64,000 nt of DNA from Burkholderiales bacterium (GCA_036381055.1 DASVDO010000008.1:7177-71176), one strand, 5' to 3'; shown: positions 44,582 through 48,135, numbered from the stretch's first letter. Made by a program: numbers and translations. The notes: generated from the sequence alone by a model not told the origin.

Positions 44582-45834
44582 AGCCGATCGCCCTGGCGCG
44601 CCCGTGGATGGGCGAGGAGGAAGCCGCGGCGGCGCGCGAAGCGATCCTTTCCGGGTGGATCACCCAGGGACCGCGCGTGCAGGCGTTCGAGGCGGCGTTC
44701 GCCGGGATGCTCGGCAGCCGCGGCGCCTGCGCGGTTTCGAGCGGCACGGCGGCCCTGCACCTCGCGCTGCTCGCCGCGGGCGTCGCTCCGGGCGACGTGG
44801 TGATCACCGTCAGCCACTCCTTCATCGCCACCGCGAACGCCGTGCGCTACTGCGGCGCCGAGCCCTTCTTCGTCGACATCGATCCGCAGACGCTCAACAT
44901 GGACCCGGCAGCGCTCGAGCGCGCCCTCGCCGAGGACTTCGAGGCGCGCGACGGCGGGCTGTGGCTCAGGGCGCCGCAGCGCCTGCAGACGCGGCAAAGC
45001 CCGCTTGCCCGCGCGCCCGGCCCGATCGGTCGCCTCGCGGCGATCGAGGTCGTGCACCAGGTCGGCATGCCGGCCGACCTCGCCGCGATCGTGCCGATCT
45101 CGGCGCGGCACGGCGTGCCGCTGATCGAGGACGCGGCATGCGCGGTCGGCAGCGCGATACGCGCCGGCGCGGGCGGCGGCTGGGAGCCGATCGGCAGGCC
45201 GCACGGCCTGGCCGCGTGCTTCAGCTTCCACCCGCGCAAGCTGCTCAGCACCGGCGACGGCGGCATGATCGTATCGGACGACGCCGCCCTGCTCGCCGCC
45301 GCGCGGCAGCTCCGCCATCACGGCATGAGCGTCTCCGACCTGGAGCGCCATCGCGCCGGCGAGGTGCTGTTCGAAAGCTACGAGCGCACCGGCTTCAACT
45401 ACCGCATGACCGACGTGCAGGCGGCGATCGGCCGGGTGCAGCTCGAGCGCCTGCCGGCGATCCTGGAGCGGCGGCGCGAGCAGGCGGCGCGCTACGCCGA
45501 GCTGCTGCGCGGCCTGCCGGGCGTCGAGGCGCCGCGCGAGCCGGGCTATGCGCGCACCAACTGGCAGAGCTATGTCGTGCGCCTGGCGCGTCCCGAGTGG
45601 CAGGCGCCGGTGATGAAGGCGCTGCGCGCGCGCGGCGTGGCGAGCGCGCGCGGCATCATGTGCGCGCACCTCGAGGCGCCTTATCGCGACGCCTGGCCGG
45701 CCGGCTGCCTGCCGCACAGCGAGGCGATGCGCGGCCGCGGCCTGATCCTGCCGCTGCACCACGAGCTCGCCGCCGAGGACCAGCAGCGCGTCGTCGAGGC
45801 GCTGCGCTCGGCGCTGCGCGATGCGGCTGCCTGA
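44566..45834 (+). CDS. DegT/ArnB-like aminotransferase (start uncertain)
   Basis: IALARPWMGEEE...GWITQGPRV and the PLP-lysine region FSFHPRKLLSTGDGGMIVS are present. I prefer the GTG at 44566 over the ATG at 44608. Confidence 0.85.
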   Translation: MAARLKPIALARPWMGEEEAAAAREAILSGWITQGPRVQAFEAAFAGMLGSRGACAVSSGTAALHLALLAAGVAPGDVVITVSHSFIATANAVRYCGAEPFFVDIDPQTLNMDPAALERALAEDFEARDGGLWLRAPQRLQTRQSPLARAPGPIGRLAAIEVVHQVGMPADLAAIVPISARHGVPLIEDAACAVGSAIRAGAGGGWEPIGRPHGLAACFSFHPRKLLSTGDGGMIVSDDAALLAAARQLRHHGMSVSDLERHRAGEVLFESYERTGFNYRMTDVQAAIGRVQLERLPAILERRREQAARYAELLRGLPGVEAPREPGYARTNWQSYVVRLARPEWQAPVMKALRARGVASARGIMCAHLEAPYRDAWPAGCLPHSEAMRGRGLILPLHHELAAEDQQRVVEALRSALRDAAA

Positions 45835-46573
45835 TTTCGTCATCGGCGGCGCGCCGCGCTCGGGAACCACCTGGGCCTATCACCTGCTCGCCCGCCATCC
45901 CGGCATCTACATGGCCGCGCCGCCGCGCCCGGAGCCGAAGTTCTTCCTGGTCGACGAGCTCTACGCGCAGGGGCTCGACTGGTATTCGCGGCGCTGGTTC
46001 GCCGCCGCGCCCTCGGGCGCGGTATGCGGCGAGAAAAGCACCAACTACCTGGAGAGCGCCGCGGCGGCGCGGCGCATGGCGAGCGACCTGCCGCACGTGA
46101 AGCTGGTGTTCCTGCTGCGCGAGCCGGCCGAGCGCGCCTGGTCGAACTACCTCTGGTCGCGCATGAACGGCCTGGAGCCGGAGAGCTTCGAGCGCGCCCT
46201 TGCCCTGGAGCCGGCGCGCGAGCAGGCGCTGCCCGCCGCGCAGCGCTTTTCGCGGCCGCACGCCTATTTCTCGCGCGGGCTCTATGCCGAGCTGCTGCGA
46301 CCGTGGCTCGCGCTTTTTCCGCGCGAGCGCGTGCTGTGCCTGCGCTACGAGGACATCGCCGAGCGTCCCGGCGAGCTCGCCGCCCGGCTGCATCGCTTCC
46401 TCGGCGTGGCGGCGCGGCCCGGCGACGCCGAGGGGCTCGGCGTGATCAACGCCGCCGAAGGCAGCGACGCGCCGATGCCCGAAGCCGCGCGGCGCGCCCT
46501 GCGGCTGCGCTACGCCGAGCCGAACCGCCGGCTGGTCGAGCTGCTCGGGCCGGAGTTCGGCGCCTGGCTGTGA
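45821..46573 (+). CDS. PAPS-dependent sulfotransferase
   Basis: A 5'-PSB loop GAPRSGTTW sits at the N-terminus. A 3'-PB-like LLREPAERAWSNY follows. Confidence 0.8.
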   Translation: MRLPDFVIGGAPRSGTTWAYHLLARHPGIYMAAPPRPEPKFFLVDELYAQGLDWYSRRWFAAAPSGAVCGEKSTNYLESAAAARRMASDLPHVKLVFLLREPAERAWSNYLWSRMNGLEPESFERALALEPAREQALPAAQRFSRPHAYFSRGLYAELLRPWLALFPRERVLCLRYEDIAERPGELAARLHRFLGVAARPGDAEGLGVINAAEGSDAPMPEAARRALRLRYAEPNRRLVELLGPEFGAWL

Positions 46574-46603
46574 GCCCCGGACCCGGCCCGCTATAGTGCC
46601 GGC

Positions 46604-47566
46604 ATGGGAGAGCCGGGGGAGCCGGGGCAACGGCGCCGGGTGACGGTCGTCACGCCGGTCTACAACGAGGAGGCGAGCCTGCCGCGGTACTTCGAGGCCG
46701 TGCGCAGCGTGCTGCTGTCCTCCACGGAGGCCGATTTCGAGGTGCTGCTGGTCGACGACGGCAGCACCGACGGGAGCTGGGCGCTGATCGAGCAGGCCTG
46801 CGCGGCCGACCGCCGCCTGCGCGGCATGCGCCTGTCGCGCAACTTCGGCGCGCACATCGCCTTGTGCGCCGGCTTCGACGCCGCCGACGCGGACGCGGTG
46901 GCGGTCCTCGCCTGCGACCTGCAGGACCCGCCCGAGGCGGTGCTCGAGTTCGTCGCGCGCTGGCAGGCCGGCGCCGACATCGTGTGGGGCCACCGCCGGC
47001 AGCGCGACGACAGCCTGTGGCGGCGCCTGGCAAGCCGCCTGTTCGGCGCGCTGATGCGCCGCTACGCGATGCCGCGCGGCTCGCTGTTCACCACCGGCAG
47101 CTTTCTGCTCGTCGACCGCAAGGTGGTCGAGGCGCTGCGCCGCATGCGCGAGCACAGCCGCATCACCTTCGCGCTGGTCGCCTGGACCGGCTTTCGCCAG
47201 GACGCCGTGCCGTACGACCGCAAGCGCCGCCAGGCCGGCCGCTCGGGCTGGACCTTCTGGCGCATGGTGCTGACGATGTACGACGCGTTCGTCGGCTTCT
47301 CGGTGCTGCCGATCCGCCTGACCACCGCGCTCGGCATCACCGTCTCGCTGCTCAACGTGCCGCTCGCGATCTACCTGCTCGTGCGCTGGTGGATCGGCAA
47401 CCCGCTGCCCGGCTACACCAGCGTGATGCTGGTGCTGACGGTGTTCTTCGGCGTGCAGTTCCTGCTGATGGGGCTGATCGGCGAGTACCTGTACCGCATC
47501 TATCTCGAGGCGGTGCAGCGCCCGCTGTACTTCGTCGCCGAGCGCTGCGGCGCCGCGCCGCGCTAG
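46604..47566 (+). CDS. GT2 polyprenyl-phosphate glycosyltransferase (ArnC/GtrB-like)
   Basis: VVTPVYNEE, LVDDGSTDGS, ACDLQDPP and two C-terminal TM helices are present. Confidence 0.85.
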   Translation: MGEPGEPGQRRRVTVVTPVYNEEASLPRYFEAVRSVLLSSTEADFEVLLVDDGSTDGSWALIEQACAADRRLRGMRLSRNFGAHIALCAGFDAADADAVAVLACDLQDPPEAVLEFVARWQAGADIVWGHRRQRDDSLWRRLASRLFGALMRRYAMPRGSLFTTGSFLLVDRKVVEALRRMREHSRITFALVAWTGFRQDAVPYDRKRRQAGRSGWTFWRMVLTMYDAFVGFSVLPIRLTTALGITVSLLNVPLAIYLLVRWWIGNPLPGYTSVMLVLTVFFGVQFLLMGLIGEYLYRIYLEAVQRPLYFVAERCGAAPR

Positions 47567-48135
47567 GCCGGCGCGAGGCGGCGCATGACCAGCGACAGCA
47601 GCTCGTCGACGCAATCGGCGAGCGACCTGCGGTCGGTCGCCAGCACGACGTCCGGCGCCTGCGGCGGCTCGTACGGCGCGCTCACGCCGGTGAACTCGGC
47701 GATCTCGCCGCGCCGCGCCCGGCGGTACAGGCCCTTCGGGTCGCGCGCCTCGCAGACCGCGAGCGGCGCATCGACGTAAACCTCGACGAAGCGCGCGGCG
47801 CCGACGATCTGCCGCGCCATTTCCCGGTCCGCGCGGTAAGGCGAGATGAACGCCGCGATGGCGATCAGCCCCGCCTCGTTGATCAGCCGCGCGATCTCGG
47901 CGCTGCGCCGGATGTTCTCGCGCCGGTCGGCGGGCGCGAAGCCGAGGTCGCGGCTGACGCCCGCGCGTATCGCGTCGCCGTCGAGCAGGTAGCAGGCGCG
48001 GCCGGCGTCGAGCAGCCGCCGCTCCAGGGCGCCGGCGATGCTCGACTTGCCGGCGCCGCTCAGGCCGGTGAGCCACACGGTCAGCGGCCGCTGCCCGAGC
48101 AGCCTCGCCCGCTCGGCCGGCGTGACGTTGCTCAT
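47563..48135 (-). CDS. cysC: adenylyl-sulfate (APS) kinase
   Basis: The P-loop LTGLSGAGKSS and the motifs LDGD, ISPYR and PYEPP are present. Confidence 0.9.
   Translation of the reverse strand: MSNVTPAERARLLGQRPLTVWLTGLSGAGKSSIAGALERRLLDAGRACYLLDGDAIRAGVSRDLGFAPADRRENIRRSAEIARLINEAGLIAIAAFISPYRADREMARQIVGAARFVEVYVDAPLAVCEARDPKGLYRRARRGEIAEFTGVSAPYEPPQAPDVVLATDRRSLADCVDELLSLVMRRLAPA

Follow-up and report, generated by a model that had tools for sequence, protein, structure and literature searches.

Research on sulfated glycoconjugates is well advanced for animals and algae; in bacteria they are rare and scattered. A stretch of 64,000 nucleotides (nt) from a soil Burkholderiales bacterium (GCA_036381055.1 DASVDO010000008.1:7177-71176; hereafter the window, meaning the whole stretch of DNA analysed, with a G+C content of ~72%) carries genes for a predicted 3'-phosphoadenosine 5'-phosphosulfate (PAPS)-type sulfotransferase (ST) and for the adenosine 5'-phosphosulfate (APS) kinase CysC within an island of glycan genes. 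The locus thus raises the question of what is sulfated, at which step, and whether the kinase serves the sulfotransferase. An initial annotation, made from the sequence alone, had described the two genes as a dedicated sulfation module embedded in the glycan island. ST does lie in the island, but we find that it belongs to the core of a widely conserved sugar-nucleotide/ArnC-like cassette, to which it is translationally coupled. The enzyme identities, active-site motifs, operon structure, cassette conservation and recurrent PAPS-gene linkage described below come from in silico analysis. We consider it likely that a di- or tri-amino sugar is sulfated in the cytoplasm, transferred to polyprenyl phosphate by an ArnC-like enzyme and handed on in the periplasm by a GT-C glycosyltransferase, with CysC tapping the APS pool.

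A predicted sulfotransferase in a translationally coupled operon

Genes were called from G+C content at third codon positions (GC3) and annotated with Pfam and NCBIfam profiles, and membrane segments were predicted by hydropathy. By GC3 gene calls, Pfam matches and hydropathy, the glycan island spans ~31.5 to 57.2 kb of the window. ST is the sixth gene of a plus-strand operon (40896–47566), which converges with a minus-strand operon ending in cysC. The genes of the plus-strand operon and cysC, with their predicted products, are as follows:

40896–41927, plus strand: Gfo/Idh/MocA NAD-dependent sugar dehydrogenase (Gfo; Pfam GFO_IDH_MocA, 2.3e-25)
41924–42424, plus strand: left-handed beta-helix (LbH) N-acetyltransferase of the 3-amino-sugar class (Pfam Hexapep, 3.2e-23)
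42414–43556, plus strand: DegT-family aminotransferase 1 (DegT1), C-3 type (Pfam DegT, 4.9e-109)
43550–44581, plus strand: extended short-chain dehydrogenase/reductase (SDR; Pfam Epimerase, 1.5e-53)
44566–45834, plus strand: DegT-family aminotransferase 2 (DegT2), C-4 ArnB/perosamine synthase type, 422 aa (Pfam DegT, 1.8e-94)
45821–46573, plus strand: PAPS-type sulfotransferase (ST) resembling the heparan sulfate N-sulfotransferases (NST) and 3-O-sulfotransferases (3-OST), 250 aa (Pfam, AlphaFold2 model, Foldseek)
46604–47566, plus strand: ArnC/PgfS-like GT2, predicted polyprenyl-phosphate sugar synthase (Pfam Glycos_transf_2, 4.4e-30)
47563–48135, minus strand: monofunctional APS kinase CysC, 190 aa (Pfam APS_kinase, 3.6e-65)

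Most junctions of the plus-strand operon are overlaps of 4 to 16 nt, the exception being a 30-nt gap before GT2. The ATG of ST at 45821 lies upstream of the TGA of DegT2 at 45832–45834, giving a 14-nt overlap. The two operons meet at the stop codons of GT2 (TAG, 47564–47566) and, on the opposite strand, cysC (47563–47565), which form a 4-nt convergent overlap, CTAG. The initial annotation was exact in these coordinates and overlaps and in the motifs that it listed. The GTG start of DegT2 was checked, and its orthologues are also called at 422 aa.

The cassette is conserved across at least 12 phyla

Conservation was assessed by a genome scan with one genome per species, which gave 129 ST relatives; 80 loci, with ST identities of 41–75%, were kept. 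The MAG (metagenome-assembled genome) that the window comes from is not among the genomes scanned. Neighbouring genes were counted by tblastn with the window proteins, and a locus was treated as complete if both flanks reached at least 8 kb (48 loci). The seven-gene cassette (Gfo, LbH, DegT1, SDR, DegT2, ST and GT2) was found across the 80 loci in at least 12 phyla. Among the complete loci, the ArnC-like GT2 gene stands beside ST in 44 of 48, at least one DegT gene is present in 43/48, SDR in 40/48, Gfo in 39/48 and LbH in 35/48; all seven genes occur together in 23/48. The loci belong to Burkholderiales, Binataceae, Nitrospirota, Acidobacteriota, Planctomycetota, Elusimicrobiota, Desulfobacterota, Alphaproteobacteria, Actinomycetota, Chloroflexota, Verrucomicrobiota, Eremiobacterota and Nitrospinota. 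The cassette is also present in genomes that are not labelled as metagenome-assembled genomes (MAGs), those of Nocardioides caldifontis and Arenibaculum pallidiluteum. In the Acidobacteriota loci the gene order is GT2 and then ST.

Only LbH, with a median identity to the window protein of 63.3% over the 47 loci where it was found, exceeds ST (58.8%); the medians are 55.6% for GT2 and 44–48% for Gfo, SDR and DegT. More than 1,300 ST homologues are detectable; identity does not fall below 61% among the top 120, whose MAGs bear the names Burkholderiales, Binataceae and Desulfobaccales. Among 1.84 billion representatives at 50% identity, 239 match ST at 1e-30 or better, almost all of them stand-alone proteins of ~250 aa. 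The best 150 of these representatives, viewed for fusions that might hint at a partner of ST, are likewise nearly all stand-alone.

All-against-all clustering of open reading frames (ORFs) revealed further recurrent partners of the cassette, namely Polysacc_deac_1 proteins, methyltransferases, LPG_synthase_TM proteins, FemAB-like GNAT proteins and large GT-C proteins. A Polysacc_deac_1 (ArnD-family) gene directly follows GT2 in 28–32 loci, for example at 11954–13135 in locus L004 and at 8247–9437 in L035. In the loci that carry it, this gene hints at removal of an N-acyl group from the lipid-linked sugar, which would yield a zwitterionic sulfo-amino sugar. The window is without an ArnD-like (Polysacc_deac_1) deacetylase, and no ArnT, ArnD, ArnE or ArnF homologue was found in its 64 kb.

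The taxonomic labels of two loci look unreliable by sequence comparison: L010 (CAZYVT010000002.1) is titled 'uncultured Enterobacteriaceae' and has a cassette 70–80% identical to Burkholderiales ones, and L026 (CAZOIK010000429.1) is titled 'uncultured Bifidobacteriaceae' and has a cassette closest to Acidobacteriota ones.

ST groups with the heparan sulfate sulfotransferases

The ST protein begins MRLPDFVIGGAPRSGTTW and contains LLREPAERAWS. It matches Sulfotransfer_1 (PF00685) at 1.5e-18 (67.6 bits against a cut-off of 22) and Sulfotransfer_3 (PF13469) at 3.9e-16 (60.4 bits against a cut-off of 27), and the profile matches of ST, GT2 and CysC are all far beyond chance. Pfam and NCBIfam searches thus bear out the initial assignment of the 250-aa protein as a PAPS-type sulfotransferase and of 47563–48135 as a monofunctional CysC. 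Hydropathy predicted no hydrophobic segment in ST.

In a phmmer search of PDB, the nearest relatives of ST were 3RNL (1e-16), the sulfotransferase domain of human NDST1 (1NST, 3e-15) and the 3-OSTs (1e-13 to 1e-10); StaL, cytosolic SULTs and tyrosylprotein sulfotransferases (TPSTs) matched much more weakly. In the alignment with 1NST, R13 of ST corresponds to Lys614 of the 5'-phosphosulfate-binding (5'-PSB) loop, E38 to the catalytic base Glu642 and S108 to Ser712 of the 3'-phosphate-binding (3'-PB) site; these NDST1 residue numbers and roles are our own count along the alignment, with residue 558 assumed to be the first of the 1NST construct. Residues G10, A11, R13, G15, T16, T17, W18, P37-E38-P39-K40-F41-F42, R100 and S108 are invariant in ST and 16 homologues of 61–83% identity. 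They include the hallmarks of the family: the 5'-PSB loop GGAPRSGTTW at residues 9–18, which the structural model places between a strand (residues 6–10) and a helix (16–24); the 3'-phosphate-binding Arg...Ser pair R100 and S108 in LLREPAERAWS; and the catalytic base E38 in PEPKFF. By profile and motifs, ST is predicted to be a PAPS-dependent sulfotransferase.

An AlphaFold2 model built on the alignment of the 16 homologues reached a pLDDT of 89.4 and a pTM of 0.88. When this model was compared with PDB by Foldseek, ranks 1–21 were all 3-OST (3-OST-3, 3-OST-1), NDST1 or 3RNL, with TM-scores of 0.73–0.80, and TPST, CurM and cytosolic SULT scored only ~0.5. Sequence and model together place ST with the glucosamine-specific heparan sulfate NST/3-OST branch. 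NodH, LpsS and Stf0, with which the initial annotation had compared it, proved not to be its kin. Its sole NCBIfam match was NoeE at 21.3 bits (cut-off 500), confined to residues 10–44 and so to the PSB loop, and no Stf0-like protein was among the PDB matches returned by phmmer; as judged from these comparisons, ST lies outside NodH/NoeE/LpsS/Stf0 at the family level.

Genes for PAPS synthesis recur beside ST

CysC exceeds the cut-offs of the NCBIfam models NF003013 (248 bits against 163) and TIGR00455 (241.3 against 138.7). It is full-length and monofunctional, with no CysN or Sat domain found by Pfam or NCBIfam, and 52% identical to Escherichia coli CysC over 180 aa. Its translation holds the P-loop GLSGAGKSS and the segments LDGD, FISPY, PKGLY and FTGVSAPYE, all of which we take to be conserved, defining segments of CysC. 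No hydrophobic segment was predicted in CysC by hydropathy. The start of cysC overlaps the stop of the adjacent LPG_synthase_TM gene by 4 nt.

The data supported the link between ST and PAPS supply that had been proposed for the window. With the window CysC as query, an APS kinase gene was found within 10 kb of ST in 13 of the 80 loci, in several phyla; with E. coli CysC as query the count was 17/87, duplicates included. Of the 48 complete loci, six carry CysC, against ~0.25 expected by chance (estimated for 20 kb of a 4-Mb genome with one copy). CysD and CysN lie together beside ST in four loci (L049, L057, L071 and L078). Two CysC homologues, each 83% identical to that of the window, come from a JGI metagenome and an ENA farmland metagenome; both lie in syntenic pilin islands, at exactly the junction that cysC occupies in the window. 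The co-location and co-inheritance that mark a non-assimilatory PAPS supply module are therefore both observed. The linked CysC copies are 44–56% identical to the window CysC and so no closer to it than is E. coli CysC, which indicates independent recruitment rather than carriage with the cassette.

These observations agree with published work. APS reductase is reported as typical of Betaproteobacteria, some of which have no cysC (PMC3125206), in keeping with what the initial annotation had said of this group; by that route CysC is unnecessary for assimilation. Mycobacteria reduce APS directly and use APS kinase to feed sulfotransferases (PMC1175818). According to one study, PAPS genes and ST genes found together in a polysaccharide cluster are a hallmark of the synthesis of sulfated polysaccharides (PMC11641403).

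Two further observations concern PAPS metabolism in related islands. A CysC homologue 75% identical to that of the window lies in an unrelated glycan cluster (L093, 2632–10642) together with a 349-aa Sulfotransfer_3 protein, a sulfatase-family protein, GT4, GtrA, Gfo and GT2; judging from this cluster, a tie to glycan sulfation seems to be general for stand-alone CysC proteins of this Burkholderiales-like clade. In L006/L010, a betaproteobacterial island, a gene at 17326–18102 encodes a CysQ-like protein of the inositol-monophosphatase family (30% identical to E. coli CysQ, 5e-18) and adjoins a homologue of the window's 645-aa membrane protein. Going by its similarity to CysQ, this protein would remove PAP (3'-phosphoadenosine 5'-phosphate), the by-product of sulfation.

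The sugar enzymes point to amination at C-3 and C-4

The best NCBIfam match of Gfo is UDP-GlcNAc 3-dehydrogenase (1.5e-31, below the cut-off), and its PDB relatives include 7BVJ; it would act as a UDP-N-acetylhexosamine (UDP-HexNAc) 3-dehydrogenase that gives a 3-keto sugar. DegT1 is nearest in PDB to 2OGA (1.2e-91), which we take to be DesV, to QdtB (1.6e-85) and to WbpE (7e-63), and it has the pyridoxal-phosphate (PLP)-lysine motif SFYPGK; by these matches it groups with the C-3 aminotransferases. LbH is nearest to WxcM-like 4MZU (2e-24), 3MQG (1.6e-21; presumably WlbB) and QdtC 3FS8, and appears from this ranking to group with the 3-amino-sugar N-acetyltransferases. DegT2 is nearest to ArnB (8SNG, 1.9e-59), 1MDO and perosamine synthase, over a range of 2e-59 to 4e-49; it is 34% identical to E. 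coli ArnB, has the PLP-lysine motif SFHPRK and, on this evidence, groups with ArnB-type C-4 aminotransferases.

In an alignment with the C-terminal domain of E. coli ArnA and with RmlB, the active-site segment of the SDR, SSSEVYG, resembles STSEVYG of ArnA and is unlike STDEVYG of RmlB. The SDR is without the Asp-Glu pair of classical 4,6-dehydratases and is 25% identical to ArnA. Two aminotransferases need two generators of keto sugars, and Gfo and the SDR are the only candidates. The sugar would accordingly be aminated at C-3 and then acetylated, and aminated at C-4 by an enzyme with no cognate acetyltransferase in the operon; it would also bear a 2-acetamido group if its precursor is UDP-GlcNAc.

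The ArnC-like GT2 has its Glycos_transf_2 domain at residues 14–177, the motifs VDDGSTDGS and DLQDPPE, and C-terminal hydrophobic segments at ~229–292. With this GT-A domain, DxD-type motif and C-terminal transmembrane region, it has the predicted make-up of a polyprenyl-phosphate glycosyltransferase of the ArnC/GtrB/DPMS type. Its best NCBIfam matches are PgfS (4e-56, 190.5 bits against 500) and ArnC (1.7e-53, 181.7 against 529), both below the equivalog cut-offs, and its identity to E. coli ArnC is 33% over 319 aa (1.7e-42). It is thus best described, from sequence, as a relative of ArnC and not as its orthologue.

Two ideas were tried and dropped. A specific name for the SDR as decarboxylase, dehydratase or epimerase was given up, the ArnA-like motif being accompanied by the low identity to ArnA and PelX being its nearest relative. 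A UDP-GlcNAc 6-dehydrogenase (WbpA-like) as conserved neighbour, which would have supported a uronic-acid/decarboxylation route, was not found among the clusters of recurrent neighbours. Compared with solved DegT enzymes such as ArnB and PseC, DegT2 has an insertion of ~30 residues (roughly 105–135 of a 402-aa version), and profile matches to DegT2 are split in two around it.

A proposed pathway from sugar nucleotide to surface

The minus-strand operon has eight genes, the last of which is cysC. They are mostly joined by overlaps of 4–16 nt or separated by 2–8 nt, with a gap of 53 nt between the pilin gene and the first GT2 gene. The other seven, in order of transcription, are as follows:

56736–57215, minus strand: type IVa pilin, heading the operon (Pfam Pilin, 1.1e-12; N_methyl, 3.9e-10; C-terminal Cys pair)
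55510–56682, minus strand: GT2 with a C-terminal transmembrane domain (Pfam Glycos_transf_2, 1.1e-21; orthologues carry GT2_TM_C)
54071–55513, minus strand: 480-aa polytopic membrane protein (no Pfam match; 8 hydrophobic segments; syntenic in relatives)
52974–54068, minus strand: GT2 fused to GtrA, a predicted second polyprenyl-phosphate sugar synthase (Pfam Glycos_transf_2, 7.2e-32; GtrA_DPMS_TM, 2.1e-18)
50908–52977, minus strand: TMEM260-like (DUF2723) GT-C with C-terminal tetratricopeptide repeats (TPR; Pfam PF11028, 2.7e-30)
49055–50899, minus strand: GT87-like polytopic membrane glycosyltransferase (GT-C; Pfam GT87, 2.4e-7; 10 hydrophobic segments)
48132–49070, minus strand: LPG_synthase_TM (MprF flippase-like) membrane protein (Pfam PF03706, 1.2e-28; 8 hydrophobic segments)

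LPG_synthase_TM also recurs beside the cassette in other phyla, and the GT87-like GT-C is syntenic in L009, L092 and L096.

From the two operons we infer an order of steps, a sugar, a site of sulfation, a flippase and an acceptor. A UDP-HexNAc would be oxidised at C-3 by Gfo, aminated by DegT1 and N-acetylated by LbH. The SDR would provide the 4-keto form, which the ArnB-like DegT2 would aminate at C-4. The soluble ST would then sulfate the sugar with PAPS, either on the nucleotide sugar or just after lipid loading, and the ArnC-like GT2 would load the sugar onto polyprenyl phosphate at the inner membrane face. The lipid-linked sulfo-sugar would be flipped, with LPG_synthase_TM and the GtrA proteins as candidate flippases, and periplasmic GT-C enzymes of the convergent operon would use it to decorate a surface acceptor, for which the type IV pilin is the candidate. 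CysC would convert APS from the cell's ATP sulfurylase into PAPS for ST.

PAPS is a cytoplasmic metabolite, and ST and CysC are soluble by prediction; sulfation would therefore have to precede flipping. The place of ST in the operon and its 14-nt overlap with DegT2 suggest that it acts on a UDP-sugar. The initial annotation had left the target broad, from the island's glycan to a sugar-nucleotide or lipid-linked intermediate. The context of the cassette favours a cytoplasmic donor sugar, as part of that proposal had it, and not lipopolysaccharide or the finished glycan. Since the cassette is also found in Actinomycetota, lipid A cannot be its general target.

Nitrogen or oxygen as the site of sulfation

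Within the proposed pathway, one form has ST sulfating the C-4 amine of a UDP-2,3-diacetamido-4-amino sugar to a sulfamate, in the step held by the ArnA formyltransferase; we offer this as tentative and rather doubtful. It is suggested by the presence of two aminotransferases and a single acetyltransferase (of the 3-N class), by the translational coupling of ST to the 4-aminotransferase gene and by NDST1, an N-sulfotransferase, being among the nearest relatives of ST. If the SDR removes C-6 or its hydroxyl, no ring hydroxyl would be left for sulfation. However, the 3-O-sulfotransferases are equally close to ST, which speaks as much for O-sulfation, for example of a C-6 or C-2 hydroxyl, on the lipid-linked sugar after ArnC-like transfer. 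This second form is quite possible, though short of probable. To our knowledge, the bacterial carbohydrate sulfotransferases characterised so far act on oxygen. The Asp-Glu pair of the 4,6-dehydratases is missing from the SDR, so the C-6 hydroxyl may survive, and the order of GT2 and ST in Acidobacteriota also fits sulfation after transfer. On the other side, O-sulfation would leave the C-4 amine without any modifying enzyme, as the one acetyltransferase is of the 3-N class, and ST directly follows, and overlaps, the 4-aminotransferase gene.

If N-sulfation holds, this would be the first case of an N-sulfated sugar in any bacterial glycoconjugate, and bacteria would have their own counterpart of heparan sulfate N-sulfation, encoded by a cassette found in at least 12 phyla including Actinomycetota; in the window it may decorate type IV pili.

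Alternative explanations and points against the proposed pathway

Could cysC instead be an ordinary assimilatory APS kinase that serves a PAPS reductase and stands at the end of the pilin operon by chance, with ST drawing on general PAPS? The protein is a typical full-length enzyme, as close to the housekeeping CysC of E. coli as its 52% identity implies, the nearest syntenic islands function without a local cysC, and the 64 kb of genome inspected offers no view of a second cysC, cysDN or cysH elsewhere. A housekeeping cysC normally travels with cysDN or cysH. The copy in the window is coupled instead to a flippase-like gene and overlaps the stop of the cassette GT2, and its junction position is kept at 83% identity in two independent metagenomes. 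In several phyla CysC or CysDN recurs near this ST, and a different ST is the neighbour of the 75% CysC relative, the next one examined. Together with the APS reductase reported as typical of Betaproteobacteria, which needs no CysC (PMC3125206), these findings make an assimilatory role unlikely. An action of ST elsewhere, for instance on tyrosine or serine residues of the pilin precursor or on a lipid or small metabolite, with its operon position reflecting co-regulation only, appears very improbable. ST adjoins the ArnC-like GT2 in 44 of the 48 complete loci across phyla, mostly without a pilin gene, and groups in sequence and fold with the glucosamine-specific NST/3-OST enzymes (TM-scores of 0.73–0.80) rather than with TPST, CurM or SULT (~0.5). 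This idea draws on the PSB loop PRSGTT, which matches what we take to be the TPST loop, on weak phmmer matches to TPST over residues 3–50, and on the cassette sugar being a predicted acceptor of ST only.

Several observations weigh against the proposed pathway itself. The PSB loop of ST has Arg13 where NST and 3-OST have Lys, Arg being the residue that we take TPST-type enzymes to have at this position. The nearest PDB relative of the SDR is a UDP-GlcNAc 4-epimerase, PelX (6WJB, 1.7e-52), followed by DesIV (6e-45) and UXS (7e-37), and it is pathway logic that would make the SDR the generator of the 4-keto sugar, whether as epimerase, dehydratase or decarboxylase. The pilin is the most economical acceptor and a candidate; what points to it is solely its operon position in this lineage, and no pilin gene was found next to the cassette in other phyla. 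No cysD, cysN, cysH or cysQ was found within the 64-kb window with the E. coli proteins as queries. A literature search found no description of the cassette, of bacterial N-sulfated sugars or of sulfated pilin glycans.

The local kinase is also an optional part of the island. Among islands whose ST proteins are 70–84% identical, cysC is present at the GT2/LPG_synthase_TM junction in the window, in L092 and in the JGI contig; it is absent from this junction in L095 (carrying P0002; ST 83–84% identical), L096 (carrying P0003), L008 and L009. In the cysC-less junctions of L095 (11724–11757) and L096 (4045–4123), GT2 leads straight to LPG_synthase_TM. As these four, which are among the closest syntenic islands, do without it, a local cysC is not required, and the cassette can use PAPS made elsewhere. 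The gene is thus an accessory of the island, present or absent among near relatives. The recurrent linkage to ST stands, and the 'dedicated' role that the initial annotation gave to cysC is a proposal short of proof.

Comparison with known systems

The enzymes nearest to ST by sequence (1e-16 to 1e-10) and fold are NDST1, 3-OST-1, -3 and -5, and 3RNL, which is bacterial and uncharacterised. They have in common with ST the 5'-PSB loop, the catalytic Glu in E-x-x-F-F and the R...S 3'-PB motif, and NST and 3-OST act on glucosamine-type sugars. They differ in that the animal enzymes act on a polymer in the Golgi, whereas the bacterial ST is soluble and encoded in a sugar-nucleotide operon, as well as in the residue at position 13, and identity is only 20–28%. 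Going by genomic context, the acceptor of ST would be a monomeric amino sugar linked to a nucleotide or a lipid rather than the glucosamine of heparan sulfate. The Arn pathway (PmrHFIJKLM) resembles the cassette in amination of a 4-keto sugar, modification in the cytoplasm, loading onto undecaprenyl phosphate by ArnC and GT-C transfer outside; in contrast to Arn, the cassette has a sulfotransferase in place of the formyltransferase and an additional Gfo/DegT/LbH branch that would add a 3-acetamido group.

The Nod-factor enzymes NodH and NoeE with NodPQ, and mycobacterial Stf0 with CysNC, are likewise carbohydrate sulfotransferases served by an APS kinase outside the reductive branch. They belong to another ST family, act on lipo-chitooligosaccharide or trehalose and involve no polyprenyl-phosphate carrier step. 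In Pseudomonas aeruginosa, TfpW is a GT-C that arabinosylates pilin and is fed by polyprenyl-phosphate sugars. The window resembles this system in gene layout, a pilin gene followed by polytopic GT-Cs and polyprenyl-phosphate sugar synthases; its glycan, however, would carry a sulfated amino sugar, and the pilin is proposed as acceptor from its position. Sulfated capsule clusters with extra cysDNC, such as that of Vibrio sp. KMM 8419, also have PAPS genes and sulfotransferases together (PMC11641403), but there the capsule is exported by an ABC transporter and rhamnose or glucose is sulfated at the polymer level, in contrast to a lipid-linked amino sugar with only cysC as local PAPS gene in the window. 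The O-antigen of Psychrobacter cryohalolentis contains 2,3,4-triacetamido-2,3,4-trideoxy-L-arabinose, aminated at C-2, C-3 and C-4 (PMC8040287), which is the type of product predicted from Gfo/DegT1/LbH and SDR/DegT2. That sugar is fully N-acetylated and part of an O-antigen, whereas the cassette has one acetyltransferase, with ST replacing the last one.

Glycan clusters that combine an ST with a PAPS-synthesis gene of their own are thus known, examples being the Nod factor genes and sulfated capsule loci. We found no description of this ST family, of its place in an Arn-like pathway, of its breadth across phyla or of a sulfated bacterial pilin glycan. The cassette would mean that one conserved ST is built into lipid-carrier glycosylation in soil and sediment bacteria of more than a dozen phyla, and it implies that an anionic, possibly zwitterionic, sugar is widespread on bacterial surfaces and has so far escaped chemical detection. 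As the bacterial family closest to the heparan sulfate enzymes, ST bears on their evolution, and it is potentially useful for the enzymatic sulfation of amino sugars. For the window, the prediction is sulfated type IV pili, with altered pilus charge, adhesion and phage recognition. Because compact seven-gene cassettes occur in the two non-MAG genomes, the prediction may be testable in culture.

Flanking regions of the island

The left arm of the island, and the block upstream of the pilin gene as annotated by Pfam (57388–63939, minus strand), which combines cyclic-nucleotide signalling with a pilus motor, contain the following:

31558–40787, strand not assigned for the block as a whole: GT87-like GT-C, 488-aa membrane protein, GT4, 556-aa membrane protein, GtrA, two S-adenosylmethionine (SAM) methyltransferases, 645-aa membrane protein (Pfam and hydropathy)
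57388–59025, minus strand: GAF and HD-GYP-type (HD_5) protein
59045–61417, minus strand: PilB/MshE-like T2SSE ATPase with N-terminal GAF and MshEN domains
61499–62551, minus strand: cNMP-binding and rhodanese protein
62553–63320, minus strand: class-II cAMP phosphodiesterase-like metallo-beta-lactamase
63322–63939, minus strand: adenylate/guanylate cyclase domain protein

Genes of the left arm likewise flank the cassette in L095 and L092. One of the two methyltransferases is NodS-like, and the 488-, 556- and 645-aa polytopic proteins have no Pfam match. From this gene content, the island's glycan is probably multi-sugar and methylated. To the left of the island, 28659–31555 encodes a ChrB-family chromate-resistance regulator, an M48 peptidase with TPR repeats and MoaC, and further left lie the genes for valyl-tRNA synthetase, leucyl aminopeptidase, LptF and LptG. 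With housekeeping genes as its left neighbours, the island appears to be inserted among housekeeping genes; no obvious mobility genes were seen within the annotated stretch around it.

Long antisense ORFs, including 45656–48076 (minus strand, 806 aa), 44578–45870 (minus strand) and 42348–43424 (minus strand), were rejected as shadow ORFs of high-GC DNA. They cluster across loci in all-against-all BLAST because the real genes opposite them are conserved.

The block upstream of the pilin gene suggests that cyclic di-GMP or cAMP controls pilus assembly, and perhaps also the glycosylation operon.

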